NCBI GenBank assembly: GCA_938083445.1
Contig: CALKCP010000001.1
Location: forward strand, 22,141-86,140
From: an uncultured Ulvibacter sp.
GTDB lineage: Bacteria; Bacteroidota; Bacteroidia; Flavobacteriales; Flavobacteriaceae
DNA: 64,000 bases
Direction of reading: 5' to 3'
Both the position numbers and the translations under genes were made by a program. Below are positions 8,320 to 54,600 of the stretch, piece by piece. How positions within the stretch are numbered: the stretch's first letter is position 1; each line of letters begins with the position of its first letter. Below the pieces are notes generated by a model. The model saw nothing but the letters and a program-made list of their open reading frames with translations. It did not search any database and was not told the origin of the DNA.

Positions 8320-11300
8320 TTAGATTCCCTTTTTGTTATTTGGCGAAACGAATTGGACAGGTAAATTATCGTCTGTTACAGCGGGTAACGCTTCTTCAGA
8401 CTCCAATGTTAGCTTTTTATGAAAGAGCTTGTTTACTAATTCGCTAAAGGTGTCAAAATTGACGGAATACGTGAGCCCAACCCCTTGCTCAAAGGTTTGA
8501 TCTTCACCAATAAATTGCAAATCTGCTTCACGATTAAAAAATTTCATTCTTAAACTACCATCCTCGTTTACAAGCCACTGAACCTCAATATCACCAGCAA
8601 TAGTCGTGTCGGTTGACCCTCCAACGGGCACCCCTACCTTCCCATTAATTAAAAGGCGTTCACTTATTTGAGTTGATATTGTTATCCCCAATCTATCTGA
8701 AGTTTCTTGATTTGGAGTTCTGTTTCCAGCAGAATAATCCAACCCTACTCGAAACTTCCCATCTTCGTCTGCAAAAAGATCATTCACCATCCCCGAAACG
8801 CGCTGTGCTAAAGTTCCGGAAAAGGTGTTAGAACTTTGATAATTATCGTTTACAAAAGAACCGGTTGCAAGCAAAAACAGTGCTTGTTTCTGATTCTGTT
8901 CTTGACTTTGGAGTTTGTATTCTAATTCACTTCGTACTGTTGAACTTACTTTCGGAAAACCAATATTAAAATTGAGGTCAGGTTGTATAATTTCACCTTT
9001 CAAATCTACAATAACCTCCACAGGTATATCTCGATTAACTGAGGGATTGTCTAGTAAAGTAGCCGGATTTGCATCCAAATTATATTTCGCACTAATATTA
9101 AGCCTCGCTCTCTCTGGGGCACCTTCCCAGACAATAAAGCCCCCTCCTACCACATCAATATCCTTTTGAATAATACCTCCATATCTAAAATCGTAGGATC
9201 CTTCGATTACTGTAAACTCGCCCCACATCTGAAATTTTCCCAGTGTGTTAATACGAATTAAGAGTGTACCATCTCCCCTTCCTTTAAGTGTCGAATTGTT
9301 TACTTTATCAACCACAACCTCTACCTCGGCTTTATTATTTATATCCAAATCGAAGTTCAGTGACAAGCCTTTAATTTCTCTTGAAACAAAGGGGTCACCA
9401 CTAATTATAGCTTGTTTCTGTTTAGGTGATAAAAACGTGATAAAAGAATCTTCTCCAATTGTTTCGGCATCACTTAATGGAATTTTGAAGGTCGTTCCTT
9501 CTTCTGTTGTAGCAGTAACGTCTATAACCAATTCATCTATCGGGCCTAAAATGTCTGCCGAACCGCTAATGAATGCTGTTCCATAGTATAGTGCTTCATC
9601 GTCGGGCGGGGTATTTAAAACAAGCAGTCGCTCTGGCGCTTCAATATGTAAGTTCAATTCCCAATCACTAAAATTTTCATGGGTAGCATTTCCAAAGAAA
9701 GTCCCTTTTGTTTTAAACTGAGAGTCGGTAATTGTAACATTTCCAATCTCTAGCTTGTTTTTAGTCACTAAAATTTCTGCCTTGTTTTCAATTTCAAAAT
9801 CTGTATTAATCTCAACAACCCTTAAACCACTATTTTCAAGAGAAAAGTTGCCTCGTATCTCTGGCGAGCCATAGTCTCCTGTAACTTTTGCTTTGCCAGA
9901 AACCAATCCTCTTATGTCTGTAATAACTTCCGCTCCAAAGGGGCTAAATGCACGCATATTGAATTCATTCAACGCTACATCTACATCAAGATTAGAACTG
10001 TTTTTTGAAACATCAATACTACCTAACGCCTCAATTGACTTCACTTGATCGTTAATAAGAGTGGAGTTAATAGAATATCTCGTTAGATCCTCATTTCCAG
10101 AAACCAGCAAACTAAAATCTCCAAAGGCTATGTCGTTTATAAGCACACTATCAATGCGAACCACCGAACTGGGATAGTATCGTTTGTTTTTCTGAACAAG
10201 ATTAAATTTCCCATTCAGATTCCCTTCAAGTCTAAGACTATCAACTGTTGGAATCAAATTTCCAATATTTACGTCATTAAAACGCATCCTCAGGTTCTTA
10301 TAGGTAGAATCCCTAATGGTTCCTGCAAAATGAATGATTTCTTTGTTGTGATTTAAAACTAAGGAATCGACTCGAACCGTATTAAAATTATCATCAAAAA
10401 CAACTTTATTATAACGGTTATTATGCTCATTTAAGAACCAGATATTTTCTTTATAGGTGATATCTGATTTTTTTACACCAACAACCGATTTCCCCTCTGG
10501 ATTGATCGTGTGATACAGCGATAAATTAAACAAGTCTTCTTTCTTTTTACCTCCATTAAATTCAGAACGGATGTACAGCGTATCATTTAATGTCTTATTT
10601 ATCAAACTAACATCCTTCAGATTATAAACGCCTGTATACACCGAATCGATGGATACGTAGGTATTGAACAACGGATTGTCGTTATCAACTTGAATATTTA
10701 ACTTGGAAAGATAATTGTCAAAAAGCAGTAACTCAGGAGATTTGAAGTTTAATTTAAACTTCGATTCATCAGAAAAAACAGAGCCCTTAATCCTAGTGTT
10801 TTCACCAAATTCTAATTGCGGCACAAAGAGTTCCACAATTTTATTATAAATAACGAATTCATAATCTATGTATTGATTGCTCGTTACTTCCTTTGGTATA
10901 AAATTGGCATATATGCTGGCAATTCCATTTCGAAAGAGACTTGGAATGTCTTTTAATAAAAATTCACCGCTAATTTCTCCGTTAATAATATCGGGGGATG
11001 TTACTTCAATAGTTCTAATTTTCGAATCAAAAGATGAGATGATTTTTAGATCATCAAAATAAAAATTATCTCGTTCATTTTGATAAAAAGTCTCACTTAG
11101 GCTTATGCTCCCTTCGGCGTCTTCAAAAGTGGTTCCATCCATATCCATAACAACCTTCCCTGCGAATACAGAAATACTATCTCGCTTTACTAGGTTTAAT
11201 TTGTTCAGCTCAGCGAAGCTAATATTGGCTTCAAAATCATATTGATTAAAATCATTAGAAACATCAATTAGGCCGACAAAGTCCATTTTTAAATTTGGGT

Positions 11301-12756
11301 CATTAACGGTAAGACCTCCATTAAACAATGGGTCTTTCATGGTTCCAGAGATGTTGATGTTTTGGTATTCATATCCTTGAAAAGAAAAGTTCGTTATGGC
11401 TCCATCTATTCCTGTGTTTAAGGTGGTTTGAGTAAAACCACTTCCGTCAAAAACCAAGTCTGCAGTAACGTTTCCTAAAGATGAAGTCCCTGTCATTTTT
11501 CCCAAATTAAATTCGGTGAAGGCGATCGAACCTTTATACGAGGTATTCTCTAAATCATGAAAATCACCAAGGGTCAAGTTCGCATTCATATTTCCAATGT
11601 CACTTTCAATCGCACTAACAGTATTCAGGTCTGATGTTGTAACCACAGTAGTTCCCATAAAACTAAAGGTTCCCAAGCGTTTCATTTCTGATGGTAAGAC
11701 AGCGCCCAAGATTCGTGGCATAAAATCTCGTAGCTCGTAATAACTAGTTGTAATCTTATGATTTTTTAACTGTATTGAATAAGGACTGTTCTTTTTAAGT
11801 AGGTTCTTAAAGCTAAAGTCTCCAACTATTTTTGTTCGACCTGTATTTATATTTCCATTTAGAAAGCTAAAATTATTGAGCGTTCCTTTAATGTCTCCAG
11901 AAAGGTAAATGGTTTGATTTAATCCAAATTCGTTGTAAAAAGAATTTAAATCATCTGTTAAAATCTTTGTGTTTTCAAAGTCTGCTGTAATAATCACATC
12001 GTTGTAAAAGTCTGAAAAACCCTTCCCACCATGAAATAATGAGATGTCACCACTTACTTTTGAACCAGCAGTCTCTAATTTCAAATCGTTTAATACTATA
12101 CCCTCAACTGAATATAAAAAATCTCCCTCTAGCTGTTTTAAAATGAGACCCCTTTTTGAAAAAAGAGACAATTTCAAGATTTCAGCCTCAACCTGAGGCC
12201 CTGTTAATTTGAAGTCATTGGCTGCAATGTTAATTCCGCTAAAATTAAAAACTTCAGCCGTTTCTAAATTTTCATTTAGTATGGTAACGACGCCATTTAT
12301 TAGTTCAAGATTTTTTGTTCCTAATGTAAAAACAGAACCACTCGACTGCCTTCCAGTTTGAAATTTGTCTCCAAATAAAGATAGATTGTCCCGTTTCTCG
12401 CCCTTGTATTGTTTGTAATACAATTTTGCGTTCGTTAGGCGCGTATTTCCTAACCCCATTTTATTATTTAAGAGATTCCGAAAGTTTAAAAAATCAGTTT
12501 GTACTTTCTGAGAATAAATTAAAGTGTCGTCGTGATGATCTTTAATTAACACTTCCCTAATATCTACTTGTCCTTTCCAATTGAGCCCCAGTCGCTCTAT
12601 TTGCATGTCTGTGCTGTAATGGTCATTCACATATGTTGTAACTCTTTTCGCAATCTCTGTTTGTACAGAAGGAGTCGAAAGAAAAATCAGCAGTATCAAT
12701 AGTAGCAAAACAATGATAGCGAATGAGCGAAGTATTATTTTCCTAAGTTTTTTGAT
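8320..12756 (-). CDS. tamB: Translocation and assembly module TamB; probable ATC start at 12756 (ORF track start is TTG 12708)
   Basis: About 1478 aa; N-terminal basic/hydrophobic anchor, long beta-rich repeats, DUF490-like C-terminus; frame open to the in-frame TAA at 12763-12765. Confidence 0.88.
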   Translation of the reverse strand: MKKLRKIILRSFAIIVLLLLILLIFLSTPSVQTEIAKRVTTYVNDHYSTDMQIERLGLNWKGQVDIREVLIKDHHDDTLIYSQKVQTDFLNFRNLLNNKMGLGNTRLTNAKLYYKQYKGEKRDNLSLFGDKFQTGRQSSGSVFTLGTKNLELINGVVTILNENLETAEVFNFSGINIAANDFKLTGPQVEAEILKLSLFSKRGLILKQLEGDFLYSVEGIVLNDLKLETAGSKVSGDISLFHGGKGFSDFYNDVIITADFENTKILTDDLNSFYNEFGLNQTIYLSGDIKGTLNNFSFLNGNINTGRTKIVGDFSFKNLLKKNSPYSIQLKNHKITTSYYELRDFMPRILGAVLPSEMKRLGTFSFMGTTVVTTSDLNTVSAIESDIGNMNANLTLGDFHDLENTSYKGSIAFTEFNLGKMTGTSSLGNVTADLVFDGSGFTQTTLNTGIDGAITNFSFQGYEYQNINISGTMKDPLFNGGLTVNDPNLKMDFVGLIDVSNDFNQYDFEANISFAELNKLNLVKRDSISVFAGKVVMDMDGTTFEDAEGSISLSETFYQNERDNFYFDDLKIISSFDSKIRTIEVTSPDIINGEISGEFLLKDIPSLFRNGIASIYANFIPKEVTSNQYIDYEFVIYNKIVELFVPQLEFGENTRIKGSVFSDESKFKLNFKSPELLLFDNYLSKLNIQVDNDNPLFNTYVSIDSVYTGVYNLKDVSLINKTLNDTLYIRSEFNGGKKKEDLFNLSLYHTINPEGKSVVGVKKSDITYKENIWFLNEHNNRYNKVVFDDNFNTVRVDSLVLNHNKEIIHFAGTIRDSTYKNLRMRFNDVNIGNLIPTVDSLRLEGNLNGKFNLVQKNKRYYPSSVVRIDSVLINDIAFGDFSLLVSGNEDLTRYSINSTLINDQVKSIEALGSIDVSKNSSNLDVDVALNEFNMRAFSPFGAEVITDIRGLVSGKAKVTGDYGSPEIRGNFSLENSGLRVVEINTDFEIENKAEILVTKNKLEIGNVTITDSQFKTKGTFFGNATHENFSDWELNLHIEAPERLLVLNTPPDDEALYYGTAFISGSADILGPIDELVIDVTATTEEGTTFKIPLSDAETIGEDSFITFLSPKQKQAIISGDPFVSREIKGLSLNFDLDINNKAEVEVVVDKVNNSTLKGRGDGTLLIRINTLGKFQMWGEFTVIEGSYDFRYGGIIQKDIDVVGGGFIVWEGAPERARLNISAKYNLDANPATLLDNPSVNRDIPVEVIVDLKGEIIQPDLNFNIGFPKVSSTVRSELEYKLQSQEQNQKQALFLLATGSFVNDNYQSSNTFSGTLAQRVSGMVNDLFADEDGKFRVGLDYSAGNRTPNQETSDRLGITISTQISERLLINGKVGVPVGGSTDTTIAGDIEVQWLVNEDGSLRMKFFNREADLQFIGEDQTFEQGVGLTYSVNFDTFSELVNKLFHKKLTLESEEALPAVTDDNLPVQFVSPNNKKGI

Positions 12757-12805
12757 ACGCTTTTATTGTTTTAATTTTATACCCACTAAATAGGTCCATT
12801 CCATT

Positions 12806-13828
12806 TTGAAAGAAAAAAACTGTTATATTTTAGGTATTGAGTCTTCTTGCGATGATACGGCCGCTGCTGTTATTAACAACGGTATCGTATTATCAAATGT
12901 TGTCGCCACTCAAAAAATTCACGAGGACTATGGCGGTGTAGTCCCAGAGCTGGCGTCACGTGCGCATCAACAAAATATTGTTCCTGTTGTCGAGCAAGCG
13001 CTTCGGAAAGCAAATATCGATAAAAAACAGTTAAGTGCCATAGCTTTTACAAGGGGTCCTGGCTTGATGGGATCGCTTCTAGTAGGTACCTCATTTTCCA
13101 AGTCGTTGGCTTTGGGTTTAGGGATTCCATTAATTGATGTAAATCATATGCAAGCCCATATTTTGGCTCACTTTATAAAAAGTGAAAGCCAGAAAATTCC
13201 AAAATTCCCCTTTATTGCATTAACAATTAGCGGAGGACATACTCAAATAGTGAAAGTAACTGACTATTTTTCTATGGAAATTCTTGGACAAACGATAGAT
13301 GATGCAGTAGGAGAAGCATTCGATAAAAGCGCCAAGATTTTAGGCCTCTCCTATCCTGGAGGTCCTATATTAGATGCGTTTGCGCAAAAAGGAAATCCCA
13401 AAGCCTACACATTCCCTAAGCCTAAAGTGAATCCCATGGACTTTAGCTTTAGTGGTTTAAAAACGGCCATCCTGTACTTCGTGGAGAAAGAAGTGAAACA
13501 AAACTCAAATTTCATCACTGAGAATATGGAAGATATTTGTGCTAGCATACAGCATACAATCGTAGACTATCTGATGGACAAATTGAAGAATGCAGTAAAG
13601 CATACCGGGATTAAGGAAATTGCCATTGGTGGCGGTGTCTCTGCCAACAGCGGGGTACGTAAAGCGATTACAGAAGCAGAGAGTAAATATGGTTGGAATA
13701 CCTACATACCTAAATTTGAATACTGTACAGATAATGCTGCGATGATAGCAATTGTAGGAGAATTAAAATATCGGAACAACCTATTTGCCAATAGCGATGT
13801 TCTTGCCGCAGCCCGATTAAAACTATAG
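12806..13828 (+). CDS. tsaD: tRNA t6A biosynthesis protein TsaD
   Basis: ILGIESSCDDT, GGVVPELASRAH, NHMQAH, SGGHT, DDAVGEAFDK, TDNAAMIA. Confidence 0.97.
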   Translation: MKEKNCYILGIESSCDDTAAAVINNGIVLSNVVATQKIHEDYGGVVPELASRAHQQNIVPVVEQALRKANIDKKQLSAIAFTRGPGLMGSLLVGTSFSKSLALGLGIPLIDVNHMQAHILAHFIKSESQKIPKFPFIALTISGGHTQIVKVTDYFSMEILGQTIDDAVGEAFDKSAKILGLSYPGGPILDAFAQKGNPKAYTFPKPKVNPMDFSFSGLKTAILYFVEKEVKQNSNFITENMEDICASIQHTIVDYLMDKLKNAVKHTGIKEIAIGGGVSANSGVRKAITEAESKYGWNTYIPKFEYCTDNAAMIAIVGELKYRNNLFANSDVLAAARLKL

Positions 13829-53169: not shown

Positions 53170-53589
53170 ATACAAACTTTGATGCAAGTTACGAGTTTTG
53201 AAGAATGTTTAAAAGACTCTTTCAATTAAGTTGTATTCCTAAGTTTAAGTAAATTCTTTAAAAACAAAATTTCGCCCACGAATTACCCAAAACATTTCGT
53301 TTTCTAACTATTAATCACAAAAGAAAACTGATTAAAAATACCTATTTTCGTCTACTAAATTAAAAAATAATTTTTCATTGAAATCAGCGAAGAATTGGGT
53401 TATTTCAAAATCTCTTGCTGCATTAAATATGGCAGATTGGGAGAAGGTGACGGCTAAACCCATCCAAATGAAGTTATATGCAAAACATAAAAACCCCTTA
53501 ACACATCTTTTTATGTCATCGATTTTACATTTTGTTTCTCCAAGTGCTTTTGAATTGAGAAAACCATTTAAAGCCAAATTCAATAGCGT

Positions 53590-54600
53590 ATCGACTCTTT
53601 AACTCAAATAGTACTTGGTGCGTCTGTCGCAGAAGCTACTCTTGGAAGAAAGATTGGCAATAAGGCTATGCTATATGGTGCCATTGCCGGTACGTTGCCA
53701 GATTTGGATGTACTATTAAACTTTGTTACTGATGAAGTTTCAGCTACAGCGATGCATCGCGGGTTTTCACATTCGCTTCTTTTTTGTCTACTATTCTCCC
53801 CCATACTGGGTTGGCTTCTTGTTAAATTGGACCGAAAGAAGGAGGCAACTATGAAGCAATGGACTCTCATGTTTTTCTTGGTTTTGGTTACCCACCCCAT
53901 CCTAGATGCCCATACCACCTGGGGAACTCAATTTTTTTGGCCCTTAGATATTAGATTGGCTTTCAATAACATATTTGTGATTGATCCAATGTACACCTTC
54001 CCATTTCTAATTTTAGTTCTGGCTGCGATGTTCTACAAGAGAACAAGTAACAAGCGCAGGAGATTAAACAATTTGGGCTTAATGCTAAGCTCCGCCTATC
54101 TTTTGCTTACTCTAGTTTTCAAGGGCATTGGTTTCTATATGTTTAAAAAGACCTTACTGCGACAAGACATTGAATATTTTTCACTTGTAACCAAGCCTAC
54201 TCCTTTAAACACCATTTTATGGAACGCTCAAATCGAAACGGAAAACGGCTATCGTTTTGCATACTACTCATTGTTTGATGAGAAGCCCATATCATTTCAT
54301 TCGGAAATACCAAAAGGACATGATTTATTAACTCCTTATAAAGAACAGGAAGACATTAAAGCAATAATTAAATTATCACGAGGGTTCTATACTGTGGAGG
54401 AAGTCGAAGGTGGTTTCATTTATACGGATTTAAAATTTGGGCAATACGGTTTTACTAAAGACGCACCCTATGTTTGGCAGTACAAACTCATGAAAAATTC
54501 TGAAGGAAGCTTAGGTATTAAAAAAATAGATTTTACTAGCGATTTCAAAAGTACACGAAATGCATTTAGCTCTCTTATAGATAGAATTAAGGGGAATTAA
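53590..54600 (+). CDS. YdjM-like metal-dependent hydrolase (inner membrane); probable ATC start at 53590 (ORF track start is 53668)
   Basis: (I)DSLTQIVLGASVAEA, GTLPDLD, HRGFSHS, THPILD, FVIDP; frame bounded by TAG at 53584-53586. Confidence 0.88.
   Translation: MDSLTQIVLGASVAEATLGRKIGNKAMLYGAIAGTLPDLDVLLNFVTDEVSATAMHRGFSHSLLFCLLFSPILGWLLVKLDRKKEATMKQWTLMFFLVLVTHPILDAHTTWGTQFFWPLDIRLAFNNIFVIDPMYTFPFLILVLAAMFYKRTSNKRRRLNNLGLMLSSAYLLLTLVFKGIGFYMFKKTLLRQDIEYFSLVTKPTPLNTILWNAQIETENGYRFAYYSLFDEKPISFHSEIPKGHDLLTPYKEQEDIKAIIKLSRGFYTVEEVEGGFIYTDLKFGQYGFTKDAPYVWQYKLMKNSEGSLGIKKIDFTSDFKSTRNAFSSLIDRIKGN

Follow-up and report, generated by a model that had tools for sequence, protein, structure and literature searches.

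Two very probable AUC start codons in an uncultured Ulvibacter, in tamB and in a YdjM-like gene, and the AGCGT flank common to both

Bacteroidia initiate translation without Shine-Dalgarno pairing. ATC is included among the starts of NCBI table 11, and AUU is the start of Escherichia coli pcnB; to our knowledge, natural and deeply conserved AUC starts are rare. Near-cognate starts have been described for infC, the gene of IF3, which begins with AUU in E. coli and with ATA in Flavobacterium johnsoniae and whose weak start is part of a demonstrated autoregulatory loop of IF3 (PMC7797042, accessible text), and for EbpA of Enterococcus faecalis, which has a rare ATT start (PMC4447247). A Kozak-like, A-rich start context has been reported for Bacteroidota (PMC6847099), and AUC, ATC, near-cognate and non-AUG are nowhere mentioned in the main text of that paper. 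The present analysis concerns a stretch of 64,000 nucleotides (nt) from an uncultured Ulvibacter sp. (contig CALKCP010000001.1; hereafter the window), in which tamB, on the minus strand, and a gene for a YdjM-like inner-membrane protein, on the plus strand, both appear to start at ATC (Table 1). The genome, G000, comprises 2.31 Mb in 38 contigs with 37.6% G+C, and its relatives by TamB similarity are marine Flavobacteriaceae including Ulvibacter, Aequorivita and Altibacter. Canonical starts are ATG, GTG and TTG throughout.

Like infC, tamB appears to be a housekeeping gene with a conserved non-AUG start of the AUH type that is mis-annotated by gene callers; unlike infC, it mainly uses AUC, at a place within the bidirectional promoter region that it shares with tsaD, and a feedback loop is shown for infC only. 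As in EbpA and pcnB, a weak start on a surface or envelope protein would keep expression low, and a downstream ATG is mis-annotated; those, however, are species-level cases with Shine-Dalgarno sites, whereas the weak tamB start is conserved across a class without such pairing. The tamB leader resembles the Kozak-like context in being A-rich and unstructured (-2.1 kcal/mol for the start region vs. -2.95 for shuffles), and the ATC context lies at the 92nd percentile of the ATG-start contexts of G000. It differs in that GCGT, which precedes both ATC codons, is G/C-rich, whereas positions -3 to -1 of typical G000 starts are A-rich. Neither of the two start regions folds better than shuffles. In 24 relatives (L140-L163), the codon at the homologous place of infC, for which the ATA start of F. 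johnsoniae served as the model (PMC7797042, accessible text), is mostly ATA, mostly as GCC-ATA, with ATC in L155, L156 and L161, ATT in L157 and CTG in L140; infC of G000 itself is cut by a contig end (C21:2-70).

Very probably, both ATC codons of the window are true initiation codons. The reading preferred here, to which a probability of about two in three is given, is that they are genuine AUC starts of very different age, and that AGCGT before them is a coincidence laid over lineage-specific conservation and not a signal that licenses AUC.

Table 1. Features of the window, with coordinates counted from its first letter
Feature	Coordinates	Strand	Remarks
tamB	8320..12756	-	1478 codons plus stop, read from ATC; N-terminus IKKLRKIILRSFAIIVLLLLILLIFLS resembles a signal anchor
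Conserved block, -22 to +24 around the tamB ATC	12733..12778	-	A-rich leader including AGCGT, and codons 1-8
AAAAGCGT-ATC	12754..12764	-	11-nt site (12764-12754) reading AAAAGCGTATC; ATC 12756-12754, putative tamB start; TAA two codons upstream
tsaD-tamB intergenic region	12757..12805	.	49 nt between divergent genes
tsaD (tRNA t6A37 threonylcarbamoyltransferase)	12806..13828	+	TIGR03723, E=2.6e-125; PF00814; divergent neighbour of tamB
Non-coding stretch (about 60 nt) upstream of the YdjM-like gene	53530..53589	+	Conserved with G003; in an ungapped comparison similarity stops about 62 nt upstream
AATAGCGT-ATC	53582..53592	+	11-nt site reading AATAGCGTATC; ATC 53590-53592, putative YdjM-like start codon; TAG stop 53584-53586
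YdjM-like inner-membrane protein gene	53590..54600	+	336 codons plus stop, read from ATC

Probable start codons of tamB and of the YdjM-like gene

The tamB product matches Pfam TamB (PF04357; E=8e-58, 196.9 bits, cut-off 22.4) and has a hydropathy peak of 3.15 over residues 7-25 (19-residue window). The first canonical start, a TTG at codon 17, falls within this hydrophobic helix, and with its use the protein would lose KKLRK, the positive n-region, together with half of the membrane helix. When the first codon is projected onto order-level loci, ATC is found in 24/30 and ATT in 2/30, and the remaining four have ATC one codon off (L030), GTG one codon upstream (L049), an adjacent ATG (L052) or an unclear codon (L047). 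Beyond this level, 26 loci from other families of Bacteroidia have ATC (14), ATT (7), GTG (2), TTG (1) or an unclear codon (2). I-K-K aligns across all tamB orthologs and, by our reading, the interval from the upstream stop to the start codon is free of canonical starts in 10 of the class-level ATC/ATT loci. Pooling of 101 distinct Flavobacteriaceae sequences gives ATC in 99 and ATT in 2 at codon 1; the share of ATC among the Ile codons of G000 is 18%. In the same 101 sequences, codon 4 takes five Leu codons (CTT 59, TTA 13, CTC 8, CTG 6, CTA 2) and codon 5 all six Arg codons (CGG 32, AGA 21, AGG 18, CGT 10, CGA 4, CGC 2), and because these two codons vary synonymously, the start should be no later than codon 4. 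The window has nothing but AAG, CGT, ATC, AAA and AAA between the upstream stop and this codon. Furthermore, a contig from an RNA library of another marine data set (X2) spans 12570-12773 with zero differences, so that the tamB ATC is not an assembly error; the metatranscriptomes are assembled contigs, from which neither transcript ends nor strand can be read.

Two side observations concern the same region. In Rasiella-type relatives (L068, L069 and L074; proteins P0011 and P0012), an in-frame ATG precedes the conserved ATC by 9 codons, which yields MSKLKHYxR-IKKLRK and a protein of 1487 amino acids, and a canonical start may have been gained secondarily in these organisms. In the 101 distinct Flavobacteriaceae sequences, codons 6-7 (12736-12741, minus strand) are AAA in 100 and ATA in all 101, mostly so class-wide, and ATA makes up 26% of Ile codons; candidate explanations for this invariance are a role in the opposite-strand promoter, an early site of slow decoding and a second near-cognate start.

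In the open reading frame (ORF) of the YdjM-like gene, the first canonical start is ATG 53668 at codon 27, and the upstream stop is separated from codon 2 by CGT and ATC alone. Residues 2-178 of the protein align with positions 2-173 of the Pfam YdjM profile (PF04307; 117 bits, cut-off 29), and because profile position 2 aligns with residue 2, the ATC corresponds to profile position 1. Full-length orthologs from 18 other genomes have ATG (16), TTG (1) or ATC (1) at the homologous codon, weak paralog matches (L021 and L022) being excluded from the counts. The sole other ATC-type gene belongs to G003, the nearest relative (a sister species), with 79% protein identity. Between G000 and G003, codons 2-26, which precede the first ATG, have 8 synonymous and 0 non-synonymous differences, and this synonymous-only change argues that the segment is translated in both species; over the remainder of the gene, the non-synonymous divergence (dN) is 0.13 and the synonymous divergence (dS) about 2.1, with synonymous sites saturated. 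A search of 400 family genomes for further ATC-type YdjM starts, with the degenerate sequence ATC-GAY-WSN-YTN-ACN-CAR-AT (ATC followed by D-S-L-T-Q-I), gave 4 matches outside G000, none of which is a YdjM start. Because ATC is confined to G000 and G003, the YdjM ATC is taken to be recent and lineage-specific.

The earlier note had named both ATC codons as candidate starts, and this part of it holds: each is the homology-defined first codon, is followed by synonymous-only variation and has no alternative canonical start upstream.

Upstream of the YdjM-like gene, the intergenic region to the gene for a PNP-oxidase-like protein (53188-53589 of the window) is unusually long, at about 400 nt, and its conservation with G003 is limited to the last 60 nt or so. 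The conserved part (Table 1) is probably the promoter and leader of the YdjM-like gene. In ATG-type YdjM orthologs (L003, L004, L006, L007, L015, L016 and L018), a TAnnTTTG-type box ends 6-10 nt before the ATG, which suggests that the leaders of the YdjM family are very short in Flavobacteriaceae.

The AGCGT flank and the tsaD-tamB control region

The two sites had been brought together by the earlier note for their identity at 10 of 11 nt, with an in-frame stop close upstream. Reading of both strands confirms the identity, and the stops lie one codon off in the YdjM-like gene and two codons off in tamB. Among 200,000 random pairs drawn from the 1883 first canonical starts of G000, at least 7 of 8 upstream bases are common with P=0.0022, and positions -5 to -1 are identical with P=0.0038. 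The two-site match is therefore nominally unusual, yet it was noticed post hoc and n=2.

From this match it had been proposed that AGCGT might license or tune AUC initiation and that the motif should be enriched at gene heads, and neither expectation is borne out. AGCGTATC occurs in 59 copies genome-wide, where 34-55 are expected (Markov orders 1-5), and in 3 copies in the window, where 0.88 are expected and 3 of 100 shuffles reach 3. A stop no more than 2 codons upstream, combined with a downstream ORF of 100 codons or longer, is found at only 2 of the 59 sites, both of them the window's own. AGCGT stands directly before 1/1883 canonical starts. In G003, the YdjM gene reads AACAGCCT-ATC, that is, AGCCT instead of AGCGT. 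In tamB orthologs, the motif is conserved within the Ulvibacter/Aequorivita-type clade (CGT-ATC in 83/101) and not beyond it: AGCGT precedes tamB in 6/26 family-level loci by manual count, and in 0/21 of the class-level ATC/ATT loci. In other genera, the tamB ATC or ATT is preceded by TCT, GCT, CCT, GGC, ACT, GTT or CTT, and in other families by AAAGTT, AAAGGT or AAAATT. Since ATC has been kept behind so many other flanks, AGCGT is dispensable for its persistence. How easily such matches arise by chance is illustrated by an exact identity of 18 nt with the tamB start (ATAAAAGCGTATCAAAAA) at C11:131513 (minus strand), inside an unrelated gene and in another frame (G-I-K-A-Y-Q-K-E-V). Thus AGCGT is not supported as a licensing signal, and its presence at both sites looks like coincidence.

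Genome-wide scans gave a similar picture. There is no excess of ATC in a good start context (9/87, similar to other codons), and no convincing third ATC start was found among 116 in-frame ATC candidates scored with a start-context matrix, in which tamB ranked second. Other high-scoring ATC candidates were dismissed for good Met starts downstream (C34:9773 and C17:170482 were inspected). A genome-wide scan for coding potential in the interval from the upstream stop to the first canonical start added no other convincing ATC case; the YdjM-like gene ranked 8th, and the top match, a positive control outside the window, was prfB, the gene of RF2, with its programmed +1 frameshift (C14:70060, minus strand).

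Two other genes were observed with starts that are possibly not canonical. In a RecX-like gene outside the window (C3:73715, minus strand), a conserved N-terminus (TYTVSEATRRLESYCAYQERC) precedes the first ATG and only ATA or CTG is available as a start, so that another non-canonical start is probable. From 47441 of the window onward (plus strand; C1:69581), there is an ORF of 250 codons in which the 35-codon stretch before the first canonical start, GTG, scores positive for coding potential, and its start may be mis-placed or non-canonical.

tsaD is divergent to tamB in 30/30 order-level and 24/26 class-level loci, mostly with gaps of 19-115 nt, and because the gap is so short, both promoters must lie in the intergenic region or overlap it. 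The consensus of the Bacteroidota promoter -7 box is TAnnTTTG. A -7-like box, TAATTTTA, is located on the plus strand at 12772-12779, 26 nt before the tsaD TTG, and would be the -7 box of tsaD. At class level, YAAAnnT-A is found at -7 to +1 of tamB in 15/21 ATC/ATT loci, compared with 23/1395 ATG starts of G000, and this sequence is the exact reverse complement of TAnnTTT[AG]. T at -1 (19/21) and the A run are thus accounted for by a TAnnTTTG box on the opposite strand. In this respect these 15 class-level loci conform to the Bacteroidota -7 box, unlike the clade of the window, in which an extra base (TACGCTTTT) breaks the box.

In that clade, most positions of the conserved block around the tamB ATC are at least 0.9 identical among 66 distinct sequences, whereas third-codon positions further downstream average 0.72; the 66 rows were chosen for TAA at -9 to -7 and CGT at -3 to -1, and these positions are 1.00 by construction. 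A perfect TAATTTTG is found in two loci, L035 and L036, with its end 26 nt before the tamB ATC. Together with the spacing in a putatively leaderless class of genes, this box predicts a tamB leader of about 22 nt, which coincides with the onset of conservation and agrees with the RNA contig reaching -17. The spacing class consists of 11 G000 genes with TAnnTTTG exactly 4 nt before the start (e.g., C11:119343, minus strand; C12:2307, plus strand; C34:5146, minus strand), in a genome in which the main peak of the box-to-start distance is at 16-19 nt, and is consistent with leaderless mRNAs.

Competing readings of the two ATC codons

According to the preferred reading, the AUC of tamB, replaced by AUU in some lineages, would be ancient, being found throughout Flavobacteriaceae and in most sampled families of Bacteroidia, and would sit in a compact bidirectional control region shared with tsaD. 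In the clade of the window, the 22 nt before the start and the first 8 codons would form one conserved, A-rich and unstructured translation-initiation region, of which GCGT is the only G/C patch, and in other families the reverse complement of TAnnTTTG at -7 to +1 presumably serves the divergent tsaD. The ordinary initiator tRNA would start at this weak codon, which would hold the synthesis of the very large, essential TamB low and may make it sensitive to IF3, as for infC. The YdjM-like gene, on the other hand, would have undergone a recent change from ATG to ATC in the common ancestor of G000 and G003, which has been tolerated, with a full-length protein still made. The conservation, the synonymous-only variation, the absence of alternative starts and the absence of motif enrichment are observed; we infer the initiating tRNA, the expression level, any coupling to IF3, the promoter assignments and the 5' end of the transcript.

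Several points weigh against this reading. The start assignments of both genes come from sequence comparison. The tamB orthologs are related, so that counts of loci are not counts of independent events, and the 80 named Flavobacteriaceae loci, all of which have ATC (80/80), were found with six peptide patterns, among which IKKLRKII biases codon 1 towards Ile but is neutral between ATC, ATT and ATA. The nominal rarity of the two-site match (P of about 0.002-0.004) also has to be counted here. The opposite-strand box leaves the non-G third base unaccounted for, as the box logo of G000 has 13% G two bases 5' of TA, and the reverse complement in the window itself (TACGCTTTT) is one base too long for a proper box. 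Finally, the flanks have a bias of their own: among the family-level tamB loci, C is at -3 in 17/26, G or C at -2 in 23/26 and T at -1 in 22/26, and A is never found at -2 or -1, while the ATC-type YdjM genes have CGT and CCT, a C[GC]T that occurs in 0/17 of the ATG/TTG orthologs and 55/1883 canonical starts.

This bias leads to the alternative that survives best, in which a shorter context element, made up of U at -1 and of G/C-rich bases other than A at -3 and -2, helps AUC to be accepted by the ribosome, AGCGT being one instance of it. By extended codon-anticodon pairing, U(-1) could pair with A37 of the initiator tRNA and so offset a mismatch at the third base. T at -1 in 19/21 of the class-level ATC/ATT loci would fit such an element, and the putative near-cognate starts of infC in the 24 relatives, too, are mostly preceded by GCC, GTC or GTT, which are not A-rich. 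However, infC mostly has C, not T, at -1, the opposite-strand TAnnTTTG box explains T at -1 and the A run equally well, and good contexts hold no genome-wide excess of ATC. Moreover, all tamB loci go back to one inherited state, and the YdjM pair counts as a single event. An element of this kind is considered unlikely.

It is also conceivable, at rather long odds, that the two mRNAs are nearly leaderless, with a -7-type box 5-8 nt before the ATC and (A)GCGT as the region of transcription start, and that proximity to the 5' end selects the weak codon. In 13/26 family-level loci, a relaxed [ACT]AnnTTT[AG] has its end 5-8 nt upstream of the tamB start, compared with 43/1113 genes genome-wide. A gene class with TAnnTTTG 4 nt before the start does exist in G000, and in ATG-type YdjM orthologs the TAnnTTTG ends 7-10 nt before the ATG (e.g., TACATTTG, TACTTTTG and TATGTTTG). 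Against this, the box in the tamB flank of the window is degenerate (AAACAATA), and the box of L035 and L036, 26 nt before the ATC, predicts the longer leader that matches the onset of the conserved block. The RNA-library contig also reaches 17 nt upstream of the tamB ATC, which is a weak indication, as its depth is 2.9 and carry-over of DNA is possible.

A third alternative would leave translation aside: the C of the tamB ATC would be fixed by overlapping promoter DNA of tsaD, with TTTTTTGAT on the opposite strand serving as a -33 TTTG element. The order on that strand, TTTG, 17 nt and TAATTTTA, would fit, and the intergenic gap is 49-61 nt in most family-level loci. The spacers of -33 TTG elements in G000, however, peak at 19-20 nt (10 of 182 boxes each), and only 2/182 are of 17 nt; the tamB ATC is kept in loci in which tsaD is 150-191 nt away (L034, L044 and L051); and in 7 class-level loci ATC is replaced by ATT, which lacks the opposite-strand G. 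Since a constraint from the tsaD promoter is also inapplicable to the YdjM gene, this explanation is very improbable. That the ATC codons are sequencing errors or cases of start loss, with proteins beginning at the next canonical codon or not made at all, is hardly credible: gene callers do begin orthologous TamB proteins at an internal ATG, GTG or TTG (as seen among 43 database entries), but the idea is already contradicted by the conservation of the tamB ATC/ATT across about 130 loci in independent assemblies, by the identical tamB sequence in the RNA-library contig of a second data set, by the synonymous-only variation upstream of the canonical codons in both genes and by the loss of the positive n-region and half of the helix that a TTG-17 start of TamB would entail.

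A probable weak start in tamB and its consequences

If both ATC codons are starts, AUC and AUU at tamB join the near-cognate AUH starts already known from infC, pcnB and EbpA; the searchable literature yielded no description of a conserved weak start in tamB. Literature searches, which covered papers other than subscription-only ones, and a term search of the accessible text of PMC12045153 brought up no mention of tamB starting at ATC or ATT. That paper reports tamB to be essential in F. johnsoniae and its native promoter to be refractory to replacement (PMC12045153). The failed promoter swap would fit a start that is buried in a shared control region.

A broader proposal can be made only tentatively and is, on balance, doubtful. 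The weak AUC/AUU start would have been kept since the origin of the class as a translational rheostat of TamB, an essential protein of outer-membrane biogenesis, its output being set by the fidelity of initiation through IF3, as in infC, and physically coupled to the transcription of tsaD, likewise an essential gene, so that envelope growth is balanced against translation capacity; the G/C-rich flank with U(-1) would help ribosomes that do not use Shine-Dalgarno pairing to accept AUC.

There are practical consequences for annotation. Most of the 43 database orthologs of TamB, including the NCBI-named TamB of Aequorivita lipolytica, are 1452-1464 amino acids long and have their first residue, M, V or L, within the helix. 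TamB entries for these bacteria in public databases, NCBI-named ones among them, thus come 14-26 residues short at the N-terminus and have lost half of the membrane anchor. Such truncated calls affect structure prediction, topology calls and the design of tagging and promoter-swap experiments. AGCGT should not be carried forward as a motif. tamB, for its part, offers a conserved test case beside infC for the choice of start codons and its fidelity in Bacteroidia.

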